63,649 nt of DNA, filler included, from Folioceros fuciformis (GCA_049999805.1; 26 parts of 26 records of this genome joined end to end with filler, not necessarily neighbours in it); one strand, 5' to 3'. Numbered from the whole stretch's first letter, positions 1 to 60,998 are shown. The notes: generated by a model from the sequence alone, not told the origin. A program made the numbers and translations.

Positions 1-191
1 GCTAGGATAGTGATATTCCAGGTTCCTTTTGCTTACTGAGGAGAAGGATAAGAGTTGCAGCGTGTGAGTGTTTAGGAATTTTGCGTTTCACATTGATTCT
101 GTGGGTGGGGTTTTTTCTTTCTCGGAGGCTGCCTTGCAGCACTTGCTTACCTTGCTGGTGGCTGATCTCTGGCGTGCTGTCTACATGGGCA

Positions 192-1841
192 ATGCCCTCT
201 GACGAGGAGGGAGGTAGTCCACGCTATCGACTGAGGACAAGGGACGTGCCAGCCAGGGTCTTTGCAAGGAGGAGGCGACCAGCACAACGGCAACGGCTGT
301 CTCTAGGAGGAGACCCAACGGGTGCAGATCATGGTGCTGAGCAGCTACAACCTATTGCAGGCACAAGTTGGTCCTCTTTTGCTAACCGGGCCCCCGATCC
401 AGTTGCACCAGATTTTGGTGACTTGAGGCAGGATAGTGGAGGCCAGGGTGCTGACCATTCATTGGTGATTTCAACAGCACAAGGAGGACAGACTAAAGTT
501 GACCTCTCGGAGGGATCTGATACCATGGAGTCAGGACCATCAAGTAGGCACGAAAAATTCTCAGGCAGGCCTGGGACTATGTCGTTGAGAGATTACCGCC
601 TACGTGTGAGTGAGGCAATCAGCCGGGTGAAGTTCAAGCACGTTGTGTTGTACAATCACCTGCACATGGTCGAATAGCTGTCTGCCTGCATGGCTAATGA
701 GGCATTGGATTTGTACGAGGCTCACCAAGCGGATTTGACTGCCACGGTGCAAACCTTGAACCCTTTGCACTAAGGGGCGGTGCATCTAGCCTACAATGAC
801 AAGTTGCAGGCTGCCATTACAGCTCATTGACAGGCCATTGCTAATGGCACTGTTGCTGCCACTGTGCAGCCTCCTACAGTGGTGAGACCCCTCACCCTAG
901 CGGAGAGGACAACAGCAACGCAGGGAATTGATGAGTTCATCCAGACTCCCAAGCATGCTAACCCCGTGGAGGAGTTTCTGAAGATTTTGGAAAAGGCCTT
1001 TCCCCTCAAAACTCCGGAGAAAATCGCTGAGTTGGCTACTTTTGCGAGGAAGAAAGGGAAGACAGTCCAGATGTGCTTCTGTAGGCTGCAAAAGCTACGT
1101 GAGGGTACTGGCATGTTGACGGATCAGGAGGCAGCGGAGAAGTTCTTAGTTGCCCTGGAGGGTGATTCTCTTTTTCACTTCTAGCTTGTGTCCTCCTTGG
1201 TGGACAAATATGGTGATAACTACACCTTGGAGCAAGTGCATGAAGAGGCGGAGAAGAAGGAGATTGCCTACTCGGTCTTCTCCTCCAAGCATGCCAAGTC
1301 CTTCCATCACTGCAAGTCCATGTTCACCAACAAGGGGTCAACCACACATGGGGGAGCTTCCTCAAGGGCAGGACCAGCTAAGCCAGCCAAGGCAGGGGCA
1401 GTAGCTATTACAGCAGCAGCACCTACGGCAGCCTTATGCAATTACTGTGGCAGTCCAGAGCACTTGTCCACTGCATGCAAGTGTCCATCGGAGGGTTTGT
1501 TCTACACTCACTGCCAAAAGAACGGCCATGTTGTCACGGTCTGCTTCCAGAAACATTTGGAGAGACGTTATCAGAAGGCAAAGGCTGAAGCTGGTGGGAC
1601 AGCAGTGGCACTTACAGCTGCTGCAGCTGGAACAATAGGGCCTTCACGGAGCAAACAGCAACGTGACAAGGCCAAGGCCAAGAATACTACCAATGCTGAG
1701 AAGGTTGCAACTTTGAAGGCACAACTGGCAGCATTGGCCACGCAGGTGGCCAATCTCTCTAGTGCTGGAGGAGCCAAACCGGCTACAGTAGTAGAACTTG
1801 TTGCAGTACCTGAAGGAGAGGACTACGTCCTGCCACATTAG
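192..1841 (+). pseudogene. gag: gag with two CCHC zinc knuckles (interrupted by stops)
   Basis: ORF pieces 81-677, 864-1184 and 1188-1841 lie in one frame. CNYCGSPEHLSTAC is CX2CX4HX4C; YTHCQKNGHVVTVC is a degenerate second knuckle. Confidence 0.8.
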
Positions 1842-2237
1842 GTCTGCACAGCGGATAAGGCACCAAGTGATAGCCAAGAGGGACGTGTTGTGATGCCGAC
1901 CAGCTGGGTGGGGCATGTGCTCCCAAATACCACGCTGGACATTACATCAGCAGCTATTGGACCTGTCACTAGGCAACGAGGGGCGAGGGCACTGATGCCT
2001 CAATCCTATGTGCCATTGCCGCCAAGTTCTGCCATTCCAATCAGGGGGTAGAGCCATTCTTCATCCGGGTCAGAGCCAAGTGGATTAGCCCCTCAAAGGG
2101 GGCAAGACATATCACGTGCGGAAAAATTGTACTTGCTTCCACAGGCTGTCACTGCTGAACATGTGGCTAAGAGGCTCACGGAGATCCCCCTCTTCACTCT
2201 CCAGGAGCTTGGACTTACACCCAGCCGGCTGTAGCAA

Positions 2238-3227
2238 ATGATGCAGACACTAGAAGCTGTGGCCACATGCAATGAGCCCGATCCTATGGTTGCTCATGCC
2301 CGATTGTGGGAACTCCCACCAGATAGATCGTCACGTTGTGACAGCAGCCTTCAACCCATGGAGCAGCCACGAATGCATTCCGGCTTGCTGGAAGGAGTCT
2401 GCAGTGTACAGGTGGCAGGCCAAGTTGGTGACAGACCACGAGTACAGCCCACCAACAGGCTCAACACTCAGGTTAGCAACGCTGTTGTTGTTAATCGAGC
2501 AGGGCACGTGACAGTGAATGGTTACGCACCTAGGGTGGTGCTGCTTGACACACGTGCACAGCCAGTCATAATCGGCAGGGTGTTGGCAGCCAGGCTACAT
2601 CGGAAGGGTGATGCTCTTCGCACATCACCCTGGAACATCACGATTGCTTCCGGGGCAATTGAGCCAGTGTGTGGGGAAACCATCCGACCGGTGGATATTA
2701 CCCTTAACCCGGGCACGCCAGATGAGATGAACTTGTCATTGCCCTATCTTGTGACCACAGCCACCAACTATGATGTCTTGTTGGGTCAAGAATTTTTGTA
2801 CCCACCATGCATTGGCATGGACAACTGGACGGAACAGGCCTTTTACAGGCCTGATTGGAGACAGGGGGGGCTCCGTGTGGCGCATCTGCCACTGCACCTT
2901 CATGGTAAAACAGTTGCTGATGTGGTCTCGCTTGTAGCTTGCCAAATGGTTTGTGACATTCAGTCTTGCAACCTGGGCGAGCTAGTGAGGGACACTGCCC
3001 ATGTAGAACGGCAGTTGGAGTCTGCAGGTGATGAGGACACACCTGGCAATGGTAGCACTTTGTCTCAAGCCATGGCTCATCCAGACTACCCTACTGAGGT
3101 GGCTACATGTTTGCAGAATGCTAAGGCTCAATTGCAGCGTGTCCAGAGCCTTGTGGCTACAGGGTTGGTGCATCCCACACAGGACAAGCTGCTGAACTGC
3201 ACTGTGATCACGTGGGCACCCTCTTAG
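2238..3227 (+). pseudogene. pol N-terminal part containing a retropepsin-type aspartic protease
   Basis: VVLLDTRAQPVIIG (degenerate D-T-G-A active site) and NYDVLLGQEFL (C-terminal LLG motif). Confidence 0.8.
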
Positions 3228-4200
3228 CCTGAACTAATGGTGGTAGAGCTGTTTGGGGTATCTGCACCGGGCTGGAGGCTTTGCTAATGACGGGGCTCAC
3301 TATCCGGCGTTATGTCTATTGTGACAAGGACCCAATAGCCAGGGACATTGTAGCCTTCAGACTGCTTGGGTTGCAACAACCCTTTCCACAGCAACTACCC
3401 CCAGAGGCCACTCACAACGTTTTTACGGCCTACCCACAGGATGTGCAGTACATCCAACAAGCCCACATCCATGCTTTGGGACCTGTGGACATGGTCATCG
3501 CTGGCTGGGAATGCCAGGGGTTTTCCAGGGCAGGCCGTGGCCAAGGCTTAGAAGATGCACGTTCAGGCCTCTTTCGGGACTTGCACTAGGTGCTCGCATG
3601 GGCTGAGCAAGATAATCCACACTGTGCTTATCTCTTGGAAAACACACCTGCTCAGCTAGACTCACGCCTACATGTGCAACAGGACATGGTGATTGTGCAG
3701 CATTATGTGGTCTCCCCATTCCTTATGGATGCTGCCCAGGTGGGTAGCTATGCCCATATGCTACACAATTATTGGACAAACCTTGTCTCGCTTTCGGTTG
3801 CGAAGCTAGCCTTACGAGGCACCACCAGGGATCCCCACTTGCACCTGCAGCTGGTCTTGGAACCACATCATCAGCCCAAGCTAGTCACTGCTAGTGAGCG
3901 TGCACCTTGGTTCCCTACCAATGTGCCAGGGCAGCCGAGACAGACGTTGCCCACGCTCGTGAGTTTTCCATGCTCTTTTGCATACAGAGCTCAAGGCAAT
4001 GGCATGCTCCTTAACACTACCACTCAGCAATGGGAGGAACCTGGAGTAGAGGAGCGAGAGTGCCTGATGGGTTTCCAGACAGGCTCTACAATAGCACCTC
4101 AAGTCACTCGACCCCAGCGTGCTGCAGCCATAGGTAGAGCCATGGACCTTCACGCCATTACTTGGCTGGTCGGCCTCTGTCTCGCCTTTCAATTGCACGC
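3228..4200 (+). pseudogene. C5-cytosine DNA methyltransferase domain within the retrotransposon pol
   Basis: Motif I VVELFG(G)ICTG, broken by a 1-bp loss in the G run at 3255-3258. Motif IV VDMVIAGWECQGFS with the catalytic Cys at 3512-3514. Also GLEDARSGLF, motif VI LLENT (3638), motif VIII DAAQVGSYAHMLHNYWTN, motif IX EERECLMGF and motif X QRAAAIGRAMD. Internal TAG at 3587-3589. Confidence 0.9.
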
Positions 4201-4422
4201 CAAGTTTGCAGTTGTAGCCCTCCCTAGCTTGCTGGCCAGTATGTGCCCAGCAGATGCTGTCCATTTTCCCTTTCCTGGCTACACTCATCTGCCCTTTTGG
4301 CTGGATGCTGGGGGGGTGGAGCAGCCTACATGGGGAAACAGGTCCGTTTTTTCCGCATCTGACCACAAGGGAAGTGAGCATGGAGCATCAACTAAGGTCA
4401 CAGTGATAATTTCCCTTGGAAG

Positions 4423-5084
4423 ATGGGGGATGAGCTCACAGACCTACAGAAGCAGAGGATTTACGTGCTACTGCTGAAGTATCGAGACTGCTTCGCCTTC
4501 TCAATGAAGGAGCTGAAGAGGTGCAATGTGTTGACCTTTAGGATCAACCTTACCACCTCAGAGCCCATCTACAGGAGAAGGTACCATCTCAGCAAGACAA
4601 AATGGGACGCCCGTTGCAGGGAATTGCTGGCAGCAGGGTTGATCAGGCCCTCCAGCAGTGACTATGCTGCTGCCACCATGATGCCGCCCAAGAAGGATAG
4701 CCAAGGGCTGTGAACTGAGAAGAGGATGTGCGGGGACTATCATCCCATAAATGCAGCAAGAGCACAAGATCGGTACCCAATGCCGACCCCTGAAGAATTT
4801 TTTTACCGCATTGGGCAGTCAGTCTTCTTCTCCACACTTGACCTACGCTAAGGATTCAACCAGGTGAGGAGGATATCAAGAAGACCGCCTTCCATGGATC
4901 TCAGCAGCTGTGGGAGCAGCTGGTGATGCCTTTTGGATTTAAAAATGCACCAGTCACCTTCCAGAGGGTAATGGATCTTGTGCTAGTAGGTGCAGCATAT
5001 TTGATGTGCTACATTGACGATGTCCTTGTGCACAACGAGGATTTTGAGCAGCACTTGGCACATCTAGAGGATCTGTTCCTTAGG
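4423..5084 (+). pseudogene. Ty3/Gypsy reverse transcriptase (partial, disrupted)
   Basis: LLAAGLIRPSSS, RMCGDYHPIN, DRYPMP, FSTLDL, MPFGFKNAPVTFQRVMD and CYIDDVLV. Confidence 0.93.
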
Positions 5085-5184
5085 NNNNNNNNNNNNNNNN
5101 NNNNNNNNNNNNNNNNNNNNNNNNNNNNTTAATTAATTAANNNNNNNNNNNNNNNNNNNNNNNNNNNNNNNNNNNNNNNNNNNN
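5085..5184. other. Artificial contig linker (44 N + TTAATTAATTAA + 44 N); first of 25
   Basis: Identical 100-bp spacer with a stop in all six frames. Others start at 8607, 16169, 19901, 22613, 26195, 28204, 30813, 34311, 35603, 37281, 38873, 40106, 41404, 44174, 46145, 48866, 50315, 53261, 54578, 56584, 57766, 59783, 60999 and 62337. Confidence 0.99.
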
Positions 5185-8606: not shown

Positions 8607-10128
8607 NNNNNNNNNNNNNNNNNNNNNNNNNNNNNNNNNNNNNNNNNNNNTTAATTAATTAANNNNNNNNNNNNNNNNNNNNNNNNNNNNNNNNNNNNNN
8701 NNNNNNTAGTAAATCCTATTACAATTTGGGTGTGGTAACATGCTCCTTCCCAAGCCATGTGAAAGTATAAAAAAAACTGGATAGGATTTCAACTGCCAAG
8801 ATAGATAGTTATAGGATTTCGGGGGCTTAAGACCATCATAATATAAGAAAAAATAATAAATATTAAACCAAGTTAAAAAGAAAATATGAAAAATATTTTT
8901 TTACTTCATACACTCCTATATACATAAATATGTATGTACTTATAGCATTATAAAACGCCCTATCCACTCTGACACGCTCCCTTCTTCTTGCTCTCTTGGT
9001 CCTTTCCTTCTTGCGCCTTGCTTCCTCTTGCTCTCTCCTTCCACCCTCCTTGCTCTCTCCTTCTACACTTCCTTCCTTTCTCCTTTCTCTCTCCTTCTAC
9101 CCCTCGTCCTTGCTTCTTCTTCTTGCTCCTTGCTCTTTCATTCCATCCTTCCTCCCTTGCTTCTTCTTGCTCCTTGCTCGTTCCTTCCACCTTTGCTTTG
9201 AGCCCCCTTGCTCCCTCCTCTTTTTCTTGCTTTGGGCCCATCTAAGTCATGCATTATGATTGGATAAGTTAGATATTTATATTATTTATGCTATTTTAAC
9301 CATAATATATATAATTAAAAATAATATTTATAGAAAAATAACATTTAGTCTTCCTCCCAACAACTAGGGAGTACCTAAATCTCTAACATTTATATAGGTA
9401 TAACATTTAGGGAGGTCACATTTATATAAGGTTGACTATAGGTACATATATAAATAAATATTAATACATATTTTAATATATTTTATTTATTATGTATGAA
9501 GAATATATGTTCGTATTACAAAATCAAATAAGAATGAAAATTATCATATCTATAAACCCAACTGTCAGAATATGAAAGAATATCATCATATTTTATTTAA
9601 AATGAATAAATTATAATTTTATAAAAATTATATTAAAAATTATTTAACGTTATCATGTAAAAAATCCAAGAATCCCATTATATTGAGTGAGAAAAAAGAT
9701 CACCATACTATTTTGACATAATCAATTGAGGAGTCGCACGAAATAGATGGTGCCATAATGTCTATCTTGTGCTTCCCCAAAATACTCCCTTGTATGAAAA
9801 GATCCAGTGGATTGCCTACAATTTATTACTGACAAGTTACCACTTAATCGGGCAATTGTGCTTGCATGGATATGCATGCATGGTAAGGGAGCAAAACCAC
9901 AGACAACGGCACACCGGCAGTATGGGTGGCCCGATGGCCATGCTGGCATGGAACCAATTTGCAGGCTGGCAGCCTCGCCAAAGATGTCGGACGAATCGTC
10001 AAATGCGGGAACAGCACCTGGTCCGTATTGCGTCGCCAAATTTCAGCTGTCAGCGACAGCCAACCAAGTCCTTTGAAAGTTAGCACAGCGGATGGTCGAT
10101 AATCAGCCGTCTACACCGTTTTACGTAA

Positions 10129-10200
10129 TCCGTAATAGTCTAGTGGTTAGGATACCTGGCTCTCACCCAGGCGACTTGGGTTCGAGCCCCGGTTACGGAA
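10129..10200 (+). tRNA. tRNA-Glu(CTC)
   Basis: 72-nt cloverleaf: acceptor TCCGTAA/TTACGGA, anticodon arm CCTGG-CT-CTC-AC-CCAGG, T loop TTCGAGC. The T stem has two G-U pairs. Confidence 0.88.
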
Positions 10201-10344
10201 TTGTCACATAAGCTCTCCCTCTTAGCTGCTGAGGGACAAGCCTACGCTGGACGGAAATTGTCTAGCCAATGTGATAGGCAGGTGTATACATACATGTCAC
10301 CACTGACTGCTGTGCCCTTTGAACTTCCGGATTTTGGTTGGGTC

Positions 10345-10872
10345 TAGGCGACTCAGCATGGTGTTGTATATGCAGCCGGAATGCCATGCCGCGCCCCCAG
10401 TATTGGACCATTTCCAACAATCACGTTTCTTCCTCGCTCTGCTGGGAATGAATGTCACCTGGCCTGGAATTCAATGTCTTTCCTTGTCAGGGTCTGTCAC
10501 GTCCGGGCCCTCACCGTGCCTTCTGTGAGTGAGACTCCGTGCAAAGTCTCTCGATTCTCCGAACTCAACCTTGAGAGCGTGTGCGAGGTGCGAGGGCGCC
10601 AGATGAGATGAGCCCAGCTGAATATCACAGGCCGGCATTTCTGTCCAGAGTCAGGTGCAGTGTCACAAAACTAATGCTCAGCAGCAGCAAACACTTCGTC
10701 GTCATAGCCACTGCCGCCCATGCCGGCCGCGGGATATCGATCAATCTGTGAGATCAGATCCAAGCTGATGCAGGCCCGTGACTCGGCAGTCCCCGACCCC
10801 ACGCCTCCAAGCCTCCATGGGTTCCATCGAGGACACACTTTCACCCGTCTGCGGCTGAAGACATCAACACAG
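10345..10872 (+). repeat. Diverged local duplicate of about 13210-13762
   Basis: Collinear matches, e.g. AGGCGACTCAGCA.GGTGT.GTATATGCAGCC, CCTCGCTCTGCTGGGAATGAATGTCACCTGGCCTGGAA, and CAGCAAACACTTCGTC. Confidence 0.85.
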
Positions 10873-10980
10873 TGTGCAGAGCGCACTCAAAGACATGATG
10901 ATCACAGGATTGAAACTCCATCGTGGAGCAGCGTCCTCCAAAAGCGGCCATGGTATCGGAATACGCAGGGCACAGCCCAT
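10873..10980 (-). pseudogene. Degenerate fragment of translocator exon 6
   Basis: GTGCAGAGCGCACTCAAAGACATGATGATCACAGGATTGAAACTCCATCGTGGAGCAGCGTCC aligns to about 14470-14582. Confidence 0.8.
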
Positions 10981-11269
10981 TCCCACGACACATAAAATTA
11001 GTGGTCCATGCAAAAAACTACTCTGCATGGGCATTAAGGATGCAATACTAGTGCGCCGGCCGTGGTGGCAGTATCGCTGGCCTACAGCGCAATGCCATGC
11101 TGGGATTAACGTGTTTAGTGGACCAGCTTGCATCGCCAACGTTGGCTGTCTAACAAATGACGATGTGGGCACATCACCAAATTGATCGGGGACAACCACC
11201 CAAGTGCTTCCATGCACAGTAAATTAACTTTGAGAGAGAGTTTCCTTAATCGAGCAAATTACTGCGTAA

Positions 11270-11341
11270 TCCGTAATAGTCTAGTGGTTAGGATACCTGG
11301 CTTTCACCCAGGCGACTCGGGTTCGAACCCCGGTTACGGAA
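11270..11341 (+). tRNA. tRNA-Glu(TTC)
   Basis: 72-nt cloverleaf with anticodon TTC; differs from the next two copies by one C>T change in the T stem. Confidence 0.93.
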
Positions 11342-11721
11342 CGGACCGAACCTGCCTTTCAAACGTGCAGTACATGCAAAACTCCTGGCGGTAGTGCAAT
11401 AAAAAATCATCCCACGCTTCCCACCTCTCGTGGTTTTCCACTTGAAAAGTCTTTTTGCATGGGTTTACTACCTATTCTATAGTAACAACCTCTTCTAACA
11501 GACGACCGAAAGGCTCCTAATAAAAATTGGAAGCGCGAGCCCTGACACACAAAGTCTGTACCTTAACCTGGTGAGGAAGGGTGTACAAGGTATAACCTGC
11601 CCCACAAACGACGATGTGGGGCAGTCCGCTAAATTCATAGGGGACAACCAATCAAGTGCTTCCTTGTACAGTAAATTACGTTTGGCGCCGATTTTGCTTA
11701 ATCAAATAGATTATTGTGTAA

Positions 11722-11793
11722 TCCGTAATAGTCTAGTGGTTAGGATACCTGGCTTTCACCCAGGCGACCCGGGTTCGAACCCCGGTTACGGAA
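11722..11793 (+). tRNA. tRNA-Glu(TTC)
   Basis: TCCGTAATAGTCTAGTGGTTAGGATACCTGGCTTTCACCCAGGCGACCCGGGTTCGAACCCCGGTTACGGAA, with intact stems and A/B boxes. Confidence 0.95.
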
Positions 11794-12173
11794 TGGAGCA
11801 GGCCAGCTGCTCGATCATAAACTACATTCACAACTCCTGGCGGTAATGCTTTAGAATATCCTCCTACGCCTTCCACCTCACCTCTCGTGGGTTTCCACTT
11901 GAAAAATCGTTTTGCTTGGGTTTATTATCGATTCTAGAGTAACAACCTCTTCTAACATACGAAAGGCTCCTAACAGAAATTTGAAACGGATCCAAGCGCG
12001 AGCCCTGACACACAAAGTTTGTACCTTTACCTCGTGCACAAGTATAACCTGCCCCACAAACAACGGTGTGGGGCACTCCACTAAATACATAGGGAACAAC
12101 CAATCAAGTGCTTCCATGTACAGTAAATTAAGTTTCGCCCCAATTTTCCTTAATCACAAGAGGAGGTATGTAA

Positions 12174-12245
12174 TCCGTAATAGTCTAGTGGTTAGGATAC
12201 CTGGCTTTCACCCAGGCGACCCGGGTTCGAACCCCGGTTACGGAA
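12174..12245 (+). tRNA. tRNA-Glu(TTC)
   Basis: Identical to 11722-11793; copies start 452 bp apart. Confidence 0.95.
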
Positions 12246-13939
12246 CGGTGCAAAATTGCTCCCAAACCAGACACAATAGTCGAACTCATAGCCTACCTAC
12301 ACTTTGAGGCCGTGTATTATGTTATATAATTTTCTTTCAGTTATTTTGAAATAAAATGAATAGTAGCAGTTCTAGTATGTAGTACTAATAGTTCTTCCAT
12401 CTTCATCTCTGCCTCCGAGAGACCAGCCTGGACAGCAGATGTCGCTTGTAAAGGATAGGCAGGCGGGTGTTGCCACTCACTGCAGTGCCTTTGAAGTTAT
12501 GGCCTCCTAAAATCAAAGAGTCATGGTGTTTTATGCACTGGAATGAATTTTGGGAGCTACATATCTTCAGCAGATTACCATTATCATCTGATGCGCAAGC
12601 CATGTCTACGACCGGCACTGGACACTGGATTCGCATCACAGTGCTCTGAGCACAGGCTCCCGATTATCCCACCTTATCCCAACTTCCGCAGCATAAGCAG
12701 ATCAGACTGCAGAGAATTGAGGGAAGCATGTCACACATGTACGCACAGCGTAGCCAACGTCGAGATTCTTGCGGACCGGACGCGCGCACTTATCCACAGC
12801 TTCATTTCACACGTGCACAGAACGCCATTGGAGCGTTAACGTTTTTTCTGAGCCTCAACCATCCACACTTGATCCAGCAATTGGCTCTCAATGACTCAAA
12901 ATTAAGACACTGGCCTCCTTCCGTGGATTGACAAGTGCCACAATCCATCAGGATGGCGTTGTCAGGATCCGGGCCTGACGTTAATGTTGCCACGAAACAC
13001 CAACTTGAAGGCTGGACTGCCACTCAATTACCTGCTCCTGAACGGTCAATCCATGAAGTGGAGGTGGATGATCGGCCTGTATGACATGGGTGCATGCGCT
13101 AATGCAGCCATGTGACAATGTGTATACAGCCACACTGCAACCTGGTGCTGTGCCCATTGTTGAACTGATTCAAACCAGCATCCGCTGTGCAGCATCAGAA
13201 CTAGAGGTCGAGGCGACTCAGCACGGTGTCGTATATGCAGCCCGAATGCCGTCTGGACCGCGCCTCCAGTGTTGGACCATGTCCAGCAATCATATTTCTC
13301 CCTCGCTCTGCTGGGAATGAATGTCACCTGGCCTGGAACTCAATCTTCTTTATTATCAGGATCTACCATGTCCACGCCCTCACCGTGCCTCATGTGGGTG
13401 AGACTCCGTGCGAAGTCTCTCGATTCCCTTAGATCTCAACAACGTACACCTAAACTTTGAGAGAGTGTGAGTGGTGCGAGAGCGCTCGACGCAATGAGCA
13501 CAGCTGAATCTCACAGCCTCGCATATCTGTCCAGAGTCATGAGCAGGGTTACAATATTAATGCTCCGAAACAGCAAACACTTCGTCATCATATCCACTGC
13601 CGCCCATGCCGACCGCGGGATGACGATCAATCTGCAAAAATCACTTCCACGCTGCTGCAGACGCGTGACTCGGCAGCCCCCGACTCCACGCACACCAAGC
13701 CTCTATGGGTTCCGTCGAAGACACTCGTTCGCTGTCTGTGGCTGCAGACACCAACACAGTCTGACACATTTTTAGGTCATGACATTAGACGCTGGTAGCC
13801 GGGGACAAGCATAGCAGACAGGACTGACCAGTAGTCTGTCATTTGTGAATTAGCAAGGTCGTGAGTGAGAGTGGTGGAATCGCTCTTCACACCGCTATCC
13901 CCCGCCCTTGATGGATTGCGGACTTTCATGCTTTAACTG

Positions 13940-35702: not shown

Positions 35703-36823
35703 GCCGGATGGAAGGGAGAGGATGTGGGCAACGGGGGAGCAGATTCCCCAGTGCTGGCCGAGCTGCACGAAGGGGAGGCAGGAGGACATTTTGCTGCGCA
35801 TATCACGTGCAGGAAAATCTTGGAAACTGGGTACTGGTGGCCGAATATGCATCGAGACACCAGAGAGTTTGTCAAGCGATGTGATGCTTGCCAGAGGGTG
35901 AGCAAGCCAACGGCCACCACTCAATGGCATTTGGTTCCAATCCTGGCCTTGGCCCCGTTTGAGAAATGGGGAATCGACTTTGTAGGGCCTATCCAACCTA
36001 AGACAAGAACCCGTCAGATTCAGTATATTCTTGTGGCCATTGATTACTACACACGCATGGTGGAGGCGCAAGCTCTTCAAGTGGACACAGCTCACGTGGT
36101 GGCCAAATTTCTGGACGAGCAGGTGATTGCCCGTTATGAGTGTCCCTTAGAGTTCGTAAGCGACCGAGATACGTACTTTGTGAATGAAGTCATTTCTTAC
36201 CTAACTGAGTACTTCATTTCTTACCTAACTGAACTACCCCCTATAATCCAAAGGCCAACGGCTTGACAGAGAAGGTGAATGGGCTCATGTGCTAGATCCT
36301 TAATAAGCTAACGGTAGAATATGCCTATGACTGGGACCTAAAGCTCCATTCCGCACTCTGGGCATTCAGGACTGTGGAAAGGATCACGACTCAGAAGACA
36401 CCTTACTACCTTACTTACGGACACCACCCGGTAATGCCAATTGAGTTTGAAGTTCCCACTTTACGTATCCAAGAGCCGAATTGCATGTCTGCAAAAGAAA
36501 GTCAATTGGAATGGCTAGCCAGCTTTATGAGGCACACCAAGGACAGGGAGCGGGCGCTGGATGCCATGCAAGAGGTACAGGCAAAGCGGAAGGAATGGCA
36601 TGACAACAAGTTGCGGAAACAGGAATGGGAAAAACCAAGAGACTTGGCCCTGCTGTATGAGAACAAATATATGCATTTTCCAGGTAAACTTCATCTAAGA
36701 TGGATGGGGCCGTACCGAGTGGTCGAAGTCTTTGCAAACGGGTCCATCCAATCGCAACAGCTGGACGGGCAGCCATTGCCAACCAGAGTCAATGGTTGGC
36801 GAATGAAGAAGTACTACACCTAA
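35703..36823 (+). pseudogene. Ty3/Gypsy integrase (Athila/Tat-like non-chromovirus), frameshifted
   Basis: HHCC domain LHEGEAGGHF...CDACQR; core PFEKWGIDFVGP...VSDR; C-terminal RWMGPYRV...VNGWRMKKYY; no chromodomain. Confidence 0.92.
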
Positions 36824-41503: not shown

Positions 41504-43761
41504 CTATCATGTTCCGAAGGAGTTTCGGGACAAATTGGCTCCTAAGTCAAGAAAATGTATTTTTCTTGGCTATGGTGAATCTGGTGAGATGGGATACCAT
41601 CTATGGGATTTATAGGCCAAAAGGATGGTTCGCAGCAATGACGTGTTCTTCAATGAGACCAAGATGTACAAAAAGCTTACTCCAACTGTGGAGGTGCGAC
41701 GGGTGGTTTTTCAAGAAGATGGATTTGACCGTCCTGCGCAGGTTGAACGTCATGATGTGCAGGAACAAGTTCCTCCCCTTGTAGAAGAGGAGAGAGTGCA
41801 ACCAACTTCGGTCGAGGCGCCAGTGCTTCGTAGGTCAGGAAGGATCTCATGTCCTCCTGACTGGTATGTTGCATCTCTTGATTATGTCATGCTGACGGAT
41901 TGTGGGGAACCCTCTTGTTATCAAGAGACCATGTCAGTGATTGACAAGGACAAATGGGAGAAGGCGATGCAGTCGCAGATGGAATCGCTCCATAAGAGTT
42001 GGTTCGCTTTCCTAGGGGCAAGAAGGTGTTGCCATGCAAATGGGTGTATAAGATGAGGGACATACCCCATTATAGCAAACCCAAGTACAAGGCATGATTG
42101 GTTGCTAACGGTATTAAGCAATAGCAAGGTATTGACTTTGATGAGATTTTCTCACTAATTGTCAAAATGACCACCTTGCGATGTGTTCTTGGTTTGGTTG
42201 CGAGGCACGACATGGAACTTATCCAGATGGATGTGAAGTCGGCATTTTTGCATGGTGATCTCAAGGAAGAGGTATACATGCAGCAACCAGAGGGTTTCAT
42301 TGAGAAGGGTAAAGAGAGTCTGGTGTGCAGGTTAAAGAAGAGCCTCTATGGTTGGAAGCAGGCACCCAGGGAGTGGTATTTCAAGTTCCACTCATTTATG
42401 CTTTCTCAAGGCTACAAGCGTAGCGATCAGGATCATTGCCTCTATACGAAGCATGCTAAGGATGGAAGCTTGCTCAATCTGGTCCTCTATGTGGATGATA
42501 TGCTGATTGCTCGGACTAATAGTGATGAGATTTCAGCGTTGAAGTCAAAGTTGAATGCTCACTTTGACATGATAGACTTAGGAGAGGCAAGCCATATTCT
42601 TGGCATGCGTATTCATCGAGACAGATAGAAGCGTCTGCTTTACTTGTCTCAAACTAAGTACATTAACAAGGTGCTTCAATGTTTCAATATGGAGAAGGGG
42701 AAGGTATTGAGTACTCCATTGCCTCCATATGTTTAATTGTCGAGCAAGGATTGCCCAAATTCTGTGGAGGACAAAGCTGAAATGAAGAAGGTTCCATATT
42801 CATCAGCTATAGGGAGTTTGATGTATGCAATGATTGCTACACGTCCTGACATTGCCTTTGCAATGGGAGTGGTTAGCAGGCTTATGTCAAACCCTGGCAG
42901 GAAGCATTGGGAGGCATGCCGTCAAAGGAGTTATGAGGTACTTGAATGGTACGAAAGCTCTGTGCTTATGTTTTGGTAAGTGAAGATGCATCTGTCGTGG
43001 GATATACGGATGTTGATTATGCAGGGGATATGGACAAAAGGAGGTCCACATCAGGTTATGTCTTCATGTGCACTGGAGGGGCAGTCTCATGGCGATCTCA
43101 TTTGCAATCGTGCATAACGCTATCTACCACGGAGGCCAAGTATGTTGCAGCGACTGAGGCGTGCAAGGAAGCCATTTGGCTTGCTCGTTTAGTGGGAGAT
43201 TTGGGGATCAAGGTTGAGCTGCCAGTGTTGCATTGTGATAGCTAGAGTGCTATCCAATTGGCGAAGAATCCAGTGTTTCATGCGAAGACCAAACATGTGG
43301 AGTGAAGTATCACTTCATTCGATAGGTGTTGGAAGACAAGAGGGTACATCTTATCAAAGTTCACACCAGTCAGAACCCTGCAGATGTTCTTACCAAGGGG
43401 CTCTCTTCGGAGCAATTCGCACAAGCTCAGACACTCATGGGCATGAGGTAGACCGCTCTCCTATGAAGGTAAATTGGCCTTTAAGGGGGAGGTTGTAGGG
43501 TTATTAAAGCCCAATGTGCTTAGACTAATGTGTTTAGTCTAAGATTAGTGTCTAGTTAAGTACCATTAGTTTAGATTAGCTTAAGCTAATCTGTAGGAAG
43601 CTTCTTGCGCAGCTTCCTAGGGAGCTCTTCTAGAGGGTATAAATACTCCCTTGAGCTCCCTTGCTGTTGAGACTCTGTGTGAGAGTGTGACCTCTTTTCT
43701 CCTGTCCTCCTTGCCTCCTCCTCTCCTCTTTCACCATGTAGCTCCTTCTAGCGATCCTTCC
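41504..43761 (+). mobile_element. Degenerate Copia family B: integrase tail, RT, RNase H, PPT (43483-43492) and 3' LTR (43494-43761)
   Basis: Closely similar to 37381-38872 but with many stops. Ends AAGGGGGAGG-T-TGTAGGG...ATCCTTC. Confidence 0.93.
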
Positions 43762-50165: not shown

Positions 50166-51282
50166 CCCACAATCTTCCTGTACATTGTTGGATCTTCAAG
50201 TGCTTCACCATCATGAGCACTGAGCTTTAGATTTTGATCCAAAGGAATCGAGATTGGCTTGCACTCAACCATACCATACTTAGTTAGTACATCCGACGCA
50301 TACTTCCGCTGTGANNNNNNNNNNNNNNNNNNNNNNNNNNNNNNNNNNNNNNNNNNNNTTAATTAATTAANNNNNNNNNNNNNNNNNNNNNNNNNNNNNN
50401 NNNNNNNNNNNNNNACCACCCTTGACAGCAACCCAAGCCCTGTCCCCCGGCTTGAACCCGGTGGCGTCAACACCTCTGAAACCTGCAAACCTAGCCGTTG
50501 CGGAAAATCCTCTGATGGTGCTCCAGTCTTGTTGTCCGATAGGAAGGGTCTACTAGTAATCAGCTCCTCCTCTTCCAAGCTCTTGTCAGCAGGCGACTGT
50601 TTGACCCCTCCCCTGTCGGCGTCTGCACACACTTCTACGGTGTCATCTTCCTTGGATGTGGCAGGGGAATATTTGTCCTCAAGTACCTCCCTTCCCTGGG
50701 AGGCTCCAGCCAGGAGTCCCCTACCCCCGCAAACCTATTGACCTACCTCCTCTGGACACCAACCCAGGCCCTCACCCACTATCCTTAAGAAATCTCCAGC
50801 CTCCAGCTCCTGCCGGGAAAAAGGAGAAGGCACCGCCCCCGCACCAGGAAGCCTGATCATCTGGGAATATGGCCCCATTGGTGCATCAGTGGTATTGCCC
50901 TCCTTTGCCCTAGAACACCTAGAACTGAAGTTGGAGCACATGTAGTGGGTTCGCCCAATTCGCCAACCTCGATAGCCGGGCCTGGATTAGGTGTTGCGTT
51001 CCTGGCTGGGAGGCCTCCAGTCGCCGCTACCACTCCACTCTGACCAGTCCCCTCCAGGGGTGCTTTGTCCCTGAAGGACAGTTTCGTACTCAACACTCTT
51101 ATCATCCCCAAGGCTTCACCACCTTCAGCGCGTGAATCCTCCTGCACTAGCTCCTTGCTCGAGGGCGAAGTCGGCGCAACCTCCTCGCCTTGCATGCACA
51201 CACCGTGGGAGGGTCGCCCTATTCTTTCAGGTAGTCCAATGGCCAGATCTTTCTGCTTGACAATGTCCTTTTCGTACCTGAC

Positions 51283-53205
51283 ATGGCAAAGCACCTAATT
51301 TCAGTTAGCCAATTAATGCAACTCAAGCGCTTAGAACTTAAGTTCACTGCAAACGGATACACACTTAGCAGTTCTCAACCTTCCTTTGTTGTTGCACAGG
51401 GCTTACTTGTGCTGGATCTCTACAGGCTAGACATGCAGTGCCTTCCTGCTAAAAGTGTACATCTTGTTGCTAGATCTCAAGCTGCTCTAGCTCAACTCTG
51501 GCATGCTCATCTTGGTCATGCTAATAAGGAAAAGTTGATTAAGATGTCCAATTTAGAGTGTTATCGGGAGCCCCTCCCCAAATGCTTCAGAGATCTTCCC
51601 CTTTGTGATGCATGCATAGTAGCCAAGCAAAAAGAGTTACCCTTTCCTGCTACTTTGGCTCATAGGTCTTCCTCCATTCTCAATTTAGTACATGCAGACA
51701 TCTTTGGGAAGCTCCATGTTCCTTCTTTGGGAGGTTCTCTTTACTATCTCACACTTACCGACGATTTTAGTCGGTATTCATGGACATACCCACTCAAGCG
51801 TAAATCTGATACTTTCCTGCTATTCAAAGAGTGGCTTACTATGATACAGAGACAAACAGGGACTCACCTTCGCTGTTTAAGATCAGACAACGGTACCGAG
51901 TTTGTGAATGATGCCTTCGATGAATATCTCGCAACTCAGGGTGCAGTCCGCCAGCTCAGTATCCCATATACCCAGCAGCAAAATGGGGTAGCAGAACGCC
52001 GGAACCAGACTTTACTCAACATGACACGGAGCATGTTGGCCTGGTCAGGGCTCAACAAACCCTACTGGGTAGAGGCCGTTGTTACTGCTACCTATATTCT
52101 CAACAGGCTTCTCACTTCTGTTGTTCCTGACCGGACTCCTTTCGAGATGATTTGGAAACGCAAACCTAGTTTGCTTCATCTTCGAGTATTCGGCTCCCCT
52201 GCCTATGCGTATATCCATGATGAACAGCGCAAGAAGCTTGAGGATAGGGCTAGACCCCTTGTGTTTGTGGGTTATGGTGAGGAGACTAAAGCTTATAAGC
52301 TTTACGACCCTCACTCCCGGTCTTCCATCTTTGCCCGTAGTGTAACTTTTAAGGAATTGCTGGCTCCTACTTCTTCAGCTACCCCTCCTTCAGTACCCTC
52401 TTTCCTGGATGTTGATGACTTCGATGAGTTCCCTTCTGAATATCCCTCAGATGCTGCTTATGAACCGTCTCTTGCTTCACAGGCTGCCGGTTCAGGGGGT
52501 GATTATGCAGCCACTTAGTCGTCATCACAATCTGTCTCAGTGCCTGAACGGCTTGCCTCTATGCCTGTACAGGCAATACAACCTGTATTGCCTGTAGTAT
52601 TTGCACAGTTTACACCACAGGATCAGAATCATGAACTTCCAATTCCTGATGCTGAGGTGGTGGACTCCCTACTAGCTGAAGAACATCGATCTGAGCATAG
52701 CTCACATTCACATCAAGACCCTTCGCTTTCACCCCTTGATACTCAAGACGATACTGATGAGTTGGAATCTGCTCAGCAAACAACTTTTGAATCTCACGAG
52801 CTAGATATTGCTGAGGAGCCAGCCGCAGAGCTAGAACGAGTTGTTGAGGAGCGAAGGTATCCCAGCAGATCCCATCCATCAAGGGAAAACTGGAACAGTA
52901 GACCCTATGAGCCTGAAGATTTCAGGATCCCTCGATCAGCTCGACTCTGTGAAGCCCTCTCCACTAATACCCCTTCTCCAGCAGAACCTCGCACATATCA
53001 AGAGGCTATAAATGGTTTGGACAAGCATCATTGGATCCCTTCAATTCAAGACGAGTATAATTCATTGATTAAGAACGGGACATGGCAGCTCTGCCCCTTA
53101 CCTGCTGGGAGGAAAATAGTGAGCTGCAAATGGGTATTCAAACACAAGCTAAATGCTCAGGGAGAAATAGCACGATACAAATCACAATTAGTTGCTCGAG
53201 GCTTC
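51283..53205 (+). pseudogene. Ty1/Copia pol: GAG-pre-integrase, integrase and start of RT, cut by a family C insertion at 53206
   Basis: LWHAHLGH...CDAC, LVHADIFG, LRSDNGTEF, QQNGVAERRNQT, CKWVFKHK and YKSQLVARGF followed directly by TGTGGAGG. Confidence 0.93.
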
Positions 53206-57865: not shown

Positions 57866-58514
57866 GAGGCTACCCAGCCCTAGGCCTCGCCTCTGCCTTG
57901 AAGGGAAGGCTGCAAGAGGGAAGGCTGTTGTGTTCCAAATTGCAGGAGAGAAGGGTTGAGTTGCAGATTTTGGAAGTGGAAGTGTTGAAGTGAGGAGTTG
58001 AGCTGAAGTGAGGGGCTGGAGGGTAAAGTGAAGTGCTAAAGTGAAGAACTAAAGTGCTGAAGTGAAGGACTAAATGCTGGGGTGAAGTGCTGAAGTGGTG
58101 GAATGAAGTGTTGAAGCTGGAGTGAGGAGCTAGCTGAAGTTGAGGTTCTCGTTTAGCTGCGGAGGTAGCTAGCACTAGGTGCTGAGAGTTGGAGGCCAGA
58201 CTTGGGGCTGGAGCCTCCTCTCAGCACTGAAGTGATTGATACTTGGAGCTAGAAATGAAGGCTGAAGACAATGCTGGAGTTCTCATTTTGTTGAGGCTGG
58301 GGTTGGTGTTGTGGTAGGAGCCGAAGACAGGACCGAGAATTCTGACCTATTGCTGTAGCACTTGGTATATGCTGATAGATAGGGTGAGATTAGGGAGATG
58401 TAGGTAACCTTGACATTAGTTCACTCCCTTGGGAGCGAATCATAAGACTGCAACCATAATAAGGGGAAGTGTGGCCCCTTGGTGGTTCTTGGGTGTGCAA
58501 GAAATCACTCCACA
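57866..58514. mobile_element. Repeat family D copy, inverted relative to the copy at 59014
   Basis: Ends ...CAAGAAATCACTCCACA, the reverse complement of the D terminus. Confidence 0.82.
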
Positions 58515-59013
58515 CATGCTTTTGGTGAACTTCAGAACATGCCTAACATCCTTCAATATGAATGAAGATTTGTTGTCAAACTTCAGCTGCACATCACCAA
58601 CGCTTGCAATCTCGTATGCGTAGTTATTTCCAAGCCGAACACATCCTTTTCTAGCAGCATCATAAGTGCTAAACCACTCCCCATGCGGAGTAACATGGAA
58701 AAATGCTCCAGAGTCAATTATCCAATTAGAGAATAAGTCACTCTCCATGGCCGTCAATTGTGCAGAATCGAAGGAAGAAGAGGTAAGAACATCTCCATCA
58801 TCAATAGAGTTCACCTTGTCACGCTTGACACTCCGACTTGCCTTGTCGCTCTGGTTCTTGTCCTTTCCTTTGTCCTTCTTGAACTTCTCGCAGTCCCTTC
58901 TGATGTGACCCTTCTTGTGACAATTGTCACACTCAACATTGTTACGACTATGAGACTTACTACGGGAAAGACTTCGCTCCTTGTACTTCCCCTTTGAAGT
59001 GGACCTGCCTCTC
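58515..59013 (-). pseudogene. Copia gag zinc knuckle and protease fragment
   Basis: CDNCHKKGHIRRDC; WIIDSGAFFHVT...LKDVRHV. Confidence 0.92.
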
Positions 59014-59490
59014 TGTGGAGTGATTTCTTGCACCCAAGAACCACCAAAGGGCCACACATTCCCTTATTATCGTTGCAGTACTATGATTCGCTCCCAAGGG
59101 AATGAACTAGAGTCAAGGTTTTCTACAATCTTCCCACATAGCCCTAATCTAACCCTATCTATCAGCCGGCTCTTAGCCCTAGCCTCACTAGGGCAAAAAA
59201 GATCACAATCCTTAGCCCTGTCTTCAATGCCAACCACAGCTCCAGCTGAATGAGAACTCTAGCATCATCTTCAGCTCCCACTTACAGCTCCAAGTATCAG
59301 CCACCTCAGCAACAGAGAGGAGGTCCCAGTTCTAGTCTTGGCCTCCACACTCAACCCTAAATGCTAGCCACCTCAGCAGATGATTGAGAACTTAAGCACC
59401 TAAGCTTCTCACCTCCGCACACCAACTCCACAGTCCAGCACTTCAAATCTCTATTCCAGCACTTCAGCTTTTCAACCCTTCATCCCTTCA
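59014..59490. mobile_element. Repeat family D copy
   Basis: Collinear with 21296-21759. Confidence 0.85.
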
Positions 59491-59882: not shown

Positions 59883-60545
59883 ACATAGTTATGAGTGTAG
59901 TTAGTGAACTGGCAAGTTAGTCAAAGGGCACACCCCTTCTAAACTGCTACTTAAGGCCTACCTTTGTATCCACCTAATCAATTTGCTAATAGATCATTTT
60001 CAATGCATTTGCTTCCGAGTTAGCAATTCTAACTAGAAGTGTTCTCGGTGAGAGTGGCTGAACGATTGGGAAAGTCTGGGGTAGCGTGAGACCCTGCAGC
60101 GCCGTTTAGATCCTAAGCGAGATCAGGAGAGGTGAGTCGCCTAGAGTTAGAAAGAGAGAAGAGAGAGAGAGATCAAGTGTGGGGCCCGCCGAGGTAGTGG
60201 AGTCCACGACTATCGTGGAGTAATGACCGAGGTAGTCGAAGAGCTGAGGCAATAGAAGTACCCCTGGGGTAGTTGAAGAGACCCCCTCCCCCCCGGTAGT
60301 TGAGTGAGTCCGTAAGGTAGTATAGGGCCCGGGTAGCCGAGCCGCAACGGAGGTAGTGGTAGCTTATTGGCAGGTATAGGAGTGAAAGGTAGGTAAAGTC
60401 TAACCTTGGATAGTAACTGACTTTGTGAGAAAACCCGTGTTATTTAGCACAAATCATTCCTTTGGGATCGAATCCCTGAGCTGTAACGACAAAGAGGGTT
60501 TGTGTGGACCTTGCAGCACCCCCGGGTGTGATATTTTCCCCCACA
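59883..60545. mobile_element. Repeat family E end (...CCCCACA) inserted in a Copia RT
   Basis: 60420-60545 matches the reverse complement of 25437-25560; GGTAG-rich like the 25437 copy. Confidence 0.75.
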
Positions 60546-60998
60546 TGGTGTGCTACAAAGGCAAGAAGAATTCTAATGGAGGTCGACTTCACTATTGGAC
60601 TAAAAAGTCTGGTTTCCTCGTAGTCGAAGCCAAGGATCTGAGTGAAGCCTCTTGCAACAAGTCTGGCCTTATGTCTTGCTACTGTTCCGTCTAGATTGAG
60701 TTTGCGCCTGAATGTCCACTTGCAGGAGATAGGTTTTCTTCCTTTCGGTAAGTCCACCAACTTCCACACTTTGCTGCTCATTACGGAGTCGTACTCTGAT
60801 TGTACTGCAGCTGTCCATTCTCGTGAAGCAAGTGCCCCGTCTATGGATAGGAGTACTCCCTACATTTCAATGGCCGATAGTGCCTGGTGTGCAACATCTT
60901 CCAACTAGTCGGTGTGAGGTTGAGAGATGGAGGATGCCTGGCGCTCCATGGGACCTGTGAGGGTATCACCAGGAGTGTATGGTGGCTCTTTCCATTCA
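60546..60998 (-). pseudogene. Ty1/Copia RT N-terminal fragment
   Basis: [23 protein letters not shown]...[25 protein letters not shown]. Confidence 0.9.

Follow-up and report, generated by a model that had tools for sequence, protein, structure and literature searches.

Retrotransposons that carry a C5 cytosine DNA methyltransferase (DNMT) of their own have been described from the freshwater green alga Klebsormidium nitens and from Symbiodinium and, according to the main text of that report, the two represent independent acquisitions (de Mendoza et al. 2018, PMC5890265). In KnitGypsy-Dnmt3, the K. nitens element, an unrearranged DNMT3-type domain lies inside the Pol frame together with Gypsy-type domains, and the K. 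nitens members are placed there in the DNMT3 clade. SymbioDIRS-Dnmt3 of Symbiodinium also has a DNMT3-type domain in its Pol. Both elements have split repeats in the order A-coding-B-A-B, and the A-coding-B-A layout, shared by the K. nitens elements, is called DIRS-like by these authors. For the dinoflagellate elements, de novo CG methylation was demonstrated in yeast. Here we analyzed a window of 63,649 bases, by which we mean the whole stretch of DNA under study. Its first contig (contig 1, 1-5084) very probably is a decayed copy, cut by the contig end, of a retrotransposon of this Gypsy-DNMT3 kind, in which gag, aspartic protease (PR), DNMT and reverse transcriptase (RT) follow each other in a single gag-pol frame.

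The window element shares with KnitGypsy-Dnmt3 the unrearranged DNMT3-type domain inside the Pol frame and the Gypsy-type domains, and its relatives have the same A-coding-B-A-B repeats. The two differ in that their DNMT domains are 35% identical, that motif IV reads Pro-Cys (PC) in K. nitens and Glu-Cys (EC) in the clade of the window element, and that the family of the latter has land plants among its hosts. With SymbioDIRS-Dnmt3 it has the DNMT3-type domain and, through its relatives, the repeats in common, whereas the Symbiodinium element uses a tyrosine recombinase and the window's family a DDE integrase (rve), to which an H2C2 zinc domain and a PHD finger belong. No PHD domain is mentioned in the main text of the 2018 report. 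A chromatin-reader module at the integrase end is likewise known from the chromoviruses, Ty3/Gypsy elements whose integrase has a C-terminal chromodomain (PMC6317226), but the reader in the window's family is a PHD finger. Neither 'PHD' nor 'methyltransferase' occurs in the main text of that survey of plant long terminal repeat (LTR) elements (Neumann et al. 2019, PMC6317226). The Gypsy-DNMT3 kind as such is already known, and contig 1 adds a new, dead member to it.

Domain order and decay of the contig 1 copy

On the plus strand, 525-5084 of contig 1 is colinear with gag, aspartic protease, a C5 methyltransferase of DNMT3-like type and RT, the last of these over its first two thirds. Chance is excluded as the source of this domain order, because the Calypogeia fissa polyprotein P0033 (1549 residues) is colinear with 531-4866 at E 0.0 in tblastn. 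Identity to P0033 amounts to 30% over gag and PR, 48% over the DNMT and 59% over RT, and the metagenome protein P0021 carries the RT match on to 5084 at 69% identity. In Pfam scans, DNA_methylase (PF00145) matched 3233-4477, with the stop read as X, at E 4.9e-6 and 26.6 bits (cut-off 22), and RVT_1 matched 4842-5084 at E 7.1e-11. A first-pass annotation of this DNA had proposed a retrotransposon with Ty3/Gypsy-type pol domains and its own C5 DNMT between protease and RT. The Pfam matches and the colinear tblastn alignment agree with that proposal, including the DNA_methylase match on which it had been made to depend.

The gag part (525-1841) starts with an ATG at 525, and the alignment to P0033 sets in at 531 with residue 4 of that protein. 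It is colinear with the Calypogeia gag, has a CCHC zinc knuckle at 1437-1478 that fits the pattern C-x2-C-x4-H-x4-C and is interrupted by stops at 675, 771, 828, 1182 and 1839. In the leader upstream of it (1-524), neither a terminal repeat nor a primer-binding site was recognised, and the four tRNA-Glu genes of the window, used as queries, gave no primer-binding site either. A linker in the same frame (1842-2234; tblastn) with stops at 2049 and 2232 leads to the retroviral-type protease region (2235-3227), assigned by Pfam and P0033, which ends in a stop at 3225. Its active-site stretch (2541-2561) reads DTR in the window copy and DTG in Calypogeia. The DNMT domain follows at 3228-4200, with motifs I to X in the usual order and a stop at 3587, as delimited by PF00145 and by the relatives. 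A frame change near 3254-3258 splits motif I (ELFGG...; 3246-3283). Motif IV (GWECQGFS; 3503-3526) has its Cys at 3512-3514, motif VI (3632-3649) has the Glu-Asn pair, motif VIII (3743-3781) has lost both arginines of the family, and motifs IX and X lie at 4049-4075 and 4130-4168; the domains lie where the first-pass annotation had placed them. Between the DNMT and RT lies a linker (4201-4407), and the tblastn segments change from frame 2 to frame 1 between 4363 and 4408. The N-terminal two thirds or so of RT (4408-5084; RVT_1, tblastn) include the YIDD motif (5010-5021), stops at 4711 and 4849 and a frame change near 4866-4869. PR thus precedes RT on contig 1, and RNase H and integrase would fall past the contig end.

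Altogether, the frame is broken by 11 in-frame stops, eight of them TAG, and it shifts at least three times, near 3254, somewhere in 4363-4408 and near 4866. The window DNMT also fails at the level of catalytic residues: the motif IV Cys and the motif VI Glu-Asn are kept, both motif VIII arginines are replaced, and in addition motif I is split and the domain contains the stop at 3587. Because of the stops, the frame changes and the lost motif VIII arginines, the window copy is dead, an inert relic that does nothing now. The first-pass annotation had called it dead on the strength of stops and a frameshift; this stands, with the damage being heavier than described and extending to motif VIII and the protease.

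The composition of contig 1 is in line with a long decay. Its observed-to-expected ratio (o/e) of CpG is 0.37, and that of TpG plus CpA is 1.46, the highest among the 26 contigs of the window. In runs labelled as a second species (organism B), a copy about 96% identical to the window element was found, and a single contig of 7751 bases spans the whole stretch. Compared with it, the window copy shows 214 differing letters and 24 gaps, and 126 of the 161 transition differences pair a T or A in the window with a C or G in the organism B contig. The C-to-T excess and the low CpG are in keeping with a copy that has long been methylated; an inert element whose methylated cytosines deaminate is expected to show such a pattern. 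Among the differences listed, other copies are intact at some positions at which the window copy is broken.

A DNMT3-like methyltransferase with a Glu-Cys motif

A family profile built from 13 sequences was searched against the PDB. DNMT3A ranked first (1.4e-23), followed by DNMT3B and DNMT3C, with DRM2 and M.HhaI at about 1e-10 and DNMT2 likewise at 1e-10 or weaker. DRM2 aligned through its C-terminal half alone (residues 225-352 to profile positions 75-205), as expected if the motifs of the family are unrearranged. Alignment and motif coordinates both give the order I to X, without the circular permutation seen in DRM enzymes such as plant DRM2. An AlphaFold model of the intact relative P0001, computed from an alignment of 50 sequences, reached a pLDDT of 86.7 and a pTM of 0.84. 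When this model was submitted to Foldseek, all 32 matches listed were catalytic domains of DNMT3A, DNMT3B or DNMT3C, with target TM scores of 0.75-0.84 for isolated DNMT3 domains. Among solved DNMTs, the methyltransferase is therefore nearest to DNMT3, by sequence and by fold.

Beyond the sequence and fold match, the family has motifs I, IV, VI, VIII, IX and X, as the cellular DNMT3A, DNMT3B and DNMT3C do, and the DNMT3-like motif VIII 'AHR.R..W.N' is shared. There are also differences from the cellular enzymes. Identity in the structural alignments is about 20%, PWWP and ADD domains are lacking, the domain is embedded in a polyprotein, and motif IV mostly reads EC instead of PC.

The first-pass annotation had remarked on EC in motif IV where PC is usual. 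The observation is correct, yet EC is no peculiarity of the window copy. Motif IV was readable in 186 of 222 family proteins, some of them near-duplicates, and EC is the commonest state (117/186), followed by PC (62/186) and other residues (7/186). Pro and Glu alternate repeatedly across the DNMT tree, K. nitens and Scenedesmus having PC. In the alignment of 50 sequences, the motif IV Cys, the Glu of the motif VI ENV and the first Arg of motif VIII are invariant. Only 2 of 80 metagenome copies are free of stops. For the 64 of these 80 with ungapped full-length matches, the median ratio of non-synonymous to synonymous substitution rates (dN/dS) was 0.37 over 2000 pairs, and 0.14 at dS>0.8. Since EC is the commonest state, the catalytic residues are invariant and selection is purifying, the sequences identify EC as a conserved family trait under selection and not as decay.

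Relatives, layouts and hosts

An exhaustive profile search of 1.84 billion representatives returned 17,301 matches at E<=0.001, 3,002 at 1e-10 and 528 clusters at 1e-30, and a word-indexed search returned 18 relatives of about the same length and 36 of greater length. The best 150 profile matches all scored above 278 bits, and many exceed 1,000 residues, the longest having 3,456. Of 20 representatives of the profile search whose names were looked up, just those of K. nitens (2) and Scenedesmus (1 cluster) were named. The K. nitens protein GAQ93235.1 is the second-best match of the family profile (515 bits), and its 35% identity to the window DNMT domain corresponds to E 3e-49 in BLASTP; a second K. 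nitens protein, GAQ80425.1, is also among the best profile matches. The kinship to the Klebsormidium DNMT elements that the first-pass annotation had suggested is thereby upheld, and we assign the window element to the KnitGypsy-Dnmt3 kind.

Further members come from four strains of Closterium and from Scenedesmus sp. PABB004, with 'pol' proteins of 3225 and 4177 residues. The closest named relatives of the window element are found in Calypogeia fissa, where two proteins with gag-PR-DNMT-RT open reading frames lie on contigs of 14.8 and 66.6 Mb. In Marchantia polymorpha, Mp_8g15430 (P0074) is a gag-PR-DNMT remnant, truncated within the methyltransferase (BLASTP, Pfam). Judged by these reading frames, the Gypsy-DNMT3 kind is present in liverwort nuclear genomes, and because of the Calypogeia open reading frames and the Marchantia remnant it reaches land plants whatever the origin of contig 1. 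The earlier claim that the lineage extends into a land plant thus holds by way of the two liverworts, whereas the window contig, on which the claim had been based, is not established as host DNA. In a tree of 60 family DNMT domains (IQ-TREE, quick search, SH-aLRT), the window sequence is sister to Calypogeia plus five metagenome sequences (support 99) and stands apart from the K. nitens group.

By Pfam scans, the family falls into two layouts. Layout A, gag-PR-DNMT-RT-RNaseH-INT (INT, integrase), is seen in Calypogeia, in Closterium, in the metagenome locus L003 and, as far as the contig goes, in the window; two incomplete proteins, the Marchantia remnant and a partial protein of K. nitens in which the DNMT follows CCHC, are consistent with it as far as each extends. 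The order RT-RNaseH-INT is read in L003, Closterium P0058 and P0041, relatives that have the architecture of the window element. In layout B the order is RT-RNaseH-DNMT-INT. This is the arrangement of the Scenedesmus 'pol' proteins and of the majority of long metagenome proteins; P0053, P0043, P0184, P0155, P0162, P0164, P0213 and P0179 have it. The family integrase is of the DDE type (rve) with an H2C2 zinc domain. It ends in a PHD finger in L003, whose single frame of 2004 residues with four stops reads gag-PR-DNMT-RT-RNaseH-INT-PHD, and in the layout B proteins scanned; the Pfam scan of Closterium P0058 gave no PHD finger.

Layouts were labelled by an RT profile, which replaced a YxDD pattern that had left 138 of 172 rows unlabelled. 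Among 222 rows, 11 were assigned to layout A and 75 to layout B, and 136 were without RT. A split in the DNMT tree (support 97) sets off 39 rows that include every layout B protein of the tree, and all layout A rows are on the other side. Because this split parts the two layouts, the tree fits a single move of the DNMT domain within pol.

Direct terminal repeats, split in the order A-coding-B-A-B, were found in five of six metagenome relatives examined, listed as L003 (5597-14921), L017, L041, L057 and L004. Repeat A measures about 290-300 nt, and B measures 164-185 nt in four loci and consists of two shorter pieces in L057. The repeat pairs are 88-94% identical, and the elements are 8.6-10.1 kb long. 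They begin with TG, and three of the four copies with ends read end in CA. Around the metagenome copies, no clear target-site duplications were seen. Several of these relatives have 14-28 nt tandem repeats in the leader.

In the literature searched, which included work on bryophytes, liverworts and Marchantia, we found no land-plant report of the Gypsy-DNMT3 kind. Among green plants, this literature credits the kind to Klebsormidium alone, and papers of 2025 and 2026 cite just the 2018 report. The identifier Mp8g15430 does not occur in it. The EC motif, the two layouts and the PHD finger are not mentioned in the main texts searched, and the supplements of de Mendoza et al. may bear on EC and on the plants screened.

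Origin of contig 1, alternative readings and significance

The window is a pseudo-chromosome and not one locus. It consists of 26 unplaced contigs of 1.1-7.5 kb, joined by 25 copies of one 100-base linker (44 N, TTAATTAATTAA, 44 N), a product of assembly without strand or biological meaning. The first of them occupies 5085-5184, the next 8607-8706, and 23 more follow; the adjacency of features across linkers is artificial. Contig 1 itself is cut by the window on its left, and on its right it ends within RT. Since unplaced contigs are chained in this way, those that adjoin 1-5084 are uninformative as to its linkage or origin.

The assembly is that of a streptophyte and probably of a land plant, to judge by the affinities of a transporter exon and a Copia integrase. 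The exon (contig 3, 14073-14597, minus strand) belongs to a gene of the triose-phosphate transporter family (At3g14410-like). Its top named match is Physcomitrium patens (76% over about half the open reading frame), followed by angiosperms at about 70%, in a search that covered proteins of 96-307 residues, a range that leaves full-length algal proteins outside its scope. The Copia integrase is nearest to Streptophyta clusters, an assignment at the level of phylum.

Contig 3 also contains four tRNA-Glu genes in 10129-12246, one CTC and three TTC, the last three in a tandem array with a period of 452; an Rfam scan of the window returned four tRNAs and nothing else. Other retrotransposon pieces lie at 35784-36439 (an unrelated Gypsy integrase), 41616-42625, 51235-52515, 58443-59063 and 60443-60859, and include Copia RT, integrase and a Pol beta-barrel. 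Two short contigs of about 1.2 kb stand out by their composition: contig 14 (40206-41403) has a GC content of 0.25, two CpA, no TpG and a TpA/ApT ratio of 1.77, and contig 20 (53361-54577) a GC content of 0.18, neither CpA nor TpG and a TpA/ApT ratio of 1.64. Such saturated composition resembles fungal repeat-induced point mutation (RIP), and the two are probably ascomycete-like DNA. Because contigs 14 and 20 are RIP-like, the bin of unplaced contigs is taken to include foreign DNA.

Several points weigh against reading contig 1 as part of a Gypsy element with a DNMT3-like enzyme. The protease region (2235-3227) matches gag-asp_proteas at E 8.4e-4 and Asp_protease_2 at E 2e-3, and the window gag matches zf-CCHC at E 0.021, all under the Pfam cut-off; the gag-asp_proteas domain does pass in Calypogeia P0033. 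Terminal repeats, RNase H, integrase and PHD are all absent from contig 1, and because it ends within RT the full element is inferred from relatives whose DNMT domains are 46-51% identical. The repeats of those relatives are not an ordinary plain LTR pair. It is unusual for the Pro of the catalytic PC dipeptide to be replaced by Glu. The term DNMT3-like draws on the PDB ranking and the fold, together with the placement of the K. nitens members in the main text of de Mendoza et al. (PMC5890265). Finally, no methyltransferase activity is on record for the Gypsy-DNMT3 kind, and in yeast no methylation was obtained with the K. nitens domain, a result its authors call inconclusive (PMC5890265).

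Each border of the DNMT domain has a frame change (near 3254 at the one, between 4363 and 4408 at the other), and one might suspect junctions there, with the DNMT being a host DNMT3 gene or fragment that adjoins or is nested in a Gypsy element, or being joined to it by misassembly. Such a construction is hardly credible. Motif I runs on across the frame change at 3254, the identical gag-PR-DNMT-RT order recurs in Calypogeia, in Closterium, in the K. nitens partial protein and in metagenome copies, in L003 within one frame, and a single 7751-base contig of another run covers the whole stretch; a host DNMT3 gene beside a transposon was rejected for this recurrence and this contig. A different objection accepts the element and doubts the enzyme: the domain might have ceased to be a DNA methyltransferase and serve as a non-catalytic DNA- or chromatin-binding module, like DNMT3L, or as an RNA enzyme, with the change from Pro to Glu marking the shift. 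The prevalence of EC at the readable sites speaks for it, as do the inactivity of the K. nitens domain in yeast and the mention of RNA methylation, in the main text of de Mendoza et al. (PMC5890265), for another retrotransposon DNMT. However, human DNMT3B failed too, which leaves the yeast result inconclusive (PMC5890265), and a dead module would not keep the catalytic residues of motifs IV (Cys), VI (Glu) and VIII (Arg) invariant. With the repeated exchanges between Pro and Glu and the PC of K. nitens and Scenedesmus, both states seem tolerated in one function, dN/dS is far below 1, and P0001 is predicted to adopt the DNMT3 catalytic fold. We therefore consider loss of the methyltransferase function in the family rather unlikely.

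The question of whose DNA contig 1 is leaves more room. It could stem from another green organism in the sample, an alga or bryophyte living on or with the plant, in which case the element would be real and silent on the host. Contig 1 measures 5 kb, is unplaced and is one of 26 that were chained together, from a bin that holds foreign DNA. A blastn search of the 26 contigs found no further copy of the element, and its nearest named relatives are a liverwort and Closterium. On the other hand, 60-62% of the words of 1-5084 were present in two DNA runs of organism A, in which 184 and 203 contig pieces aligned to the stretch at 90-100% identity (in bands of 99+, 95-99 and 90-95%), so the element family is multicopy in organism A. 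Together with the copy at about 96% identity in organism B, these many diverged copies speak for a multicopy family resident in related hosts more than for contamination in traces, and the GC content (0.53) and CpG depletion of contig 1 are within the range of the other contigs. We thus regard contig 1 as likely to be host DNA, and a co-sampled source as somewhat unlikely.

In live members of the family, the methyltransferase would be made as part of Gag-Pol and would travel with RT and integrase. In intact relatives, the gag-pol frame goes on to encode RNase H and then a DDE integrase with a PHD finger at its end. In live members, new cDNA or a fresh insertion would then be methylated de novo, as de Mendoza et al. 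propose (PMC5890265). By analogy with the chromodomains of chromoviruses, the PHD finger would probably read histone tails and steer integration. Taking the lines of evidence together, we tentatively suggest an old green-plant clade, with a DDE integrase-PHD, split A...B-A-B repeats and a mostly Glu-Cys DNMT3, in which the DNMT moved once within pol and which survived into liverworts and into the host of the window; the much less decayed copy in the second, related species may still be active. This combined picture is possible, though doubtful as a whole.

To the known kind, the present analysis adds 528 clusters at E<=1e-30, a range from Scenedesmus to liverwort chromosomes, two layouts and a mostly Glu-Cys motif. 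The natural EC and PC variants are material for probing what such enzymes do. DNA methylation is the main means by which plants silence transposons, and a transposon with a de novo methyltransferase of its own therefore reverses the usual roles. If the suggested picture is true, with a copy still active, the result would be a self-methylating retrotransposon in an embryophyte. The present data also raise the question of whether transposon enzymes deposit some of the methylation of land plants.

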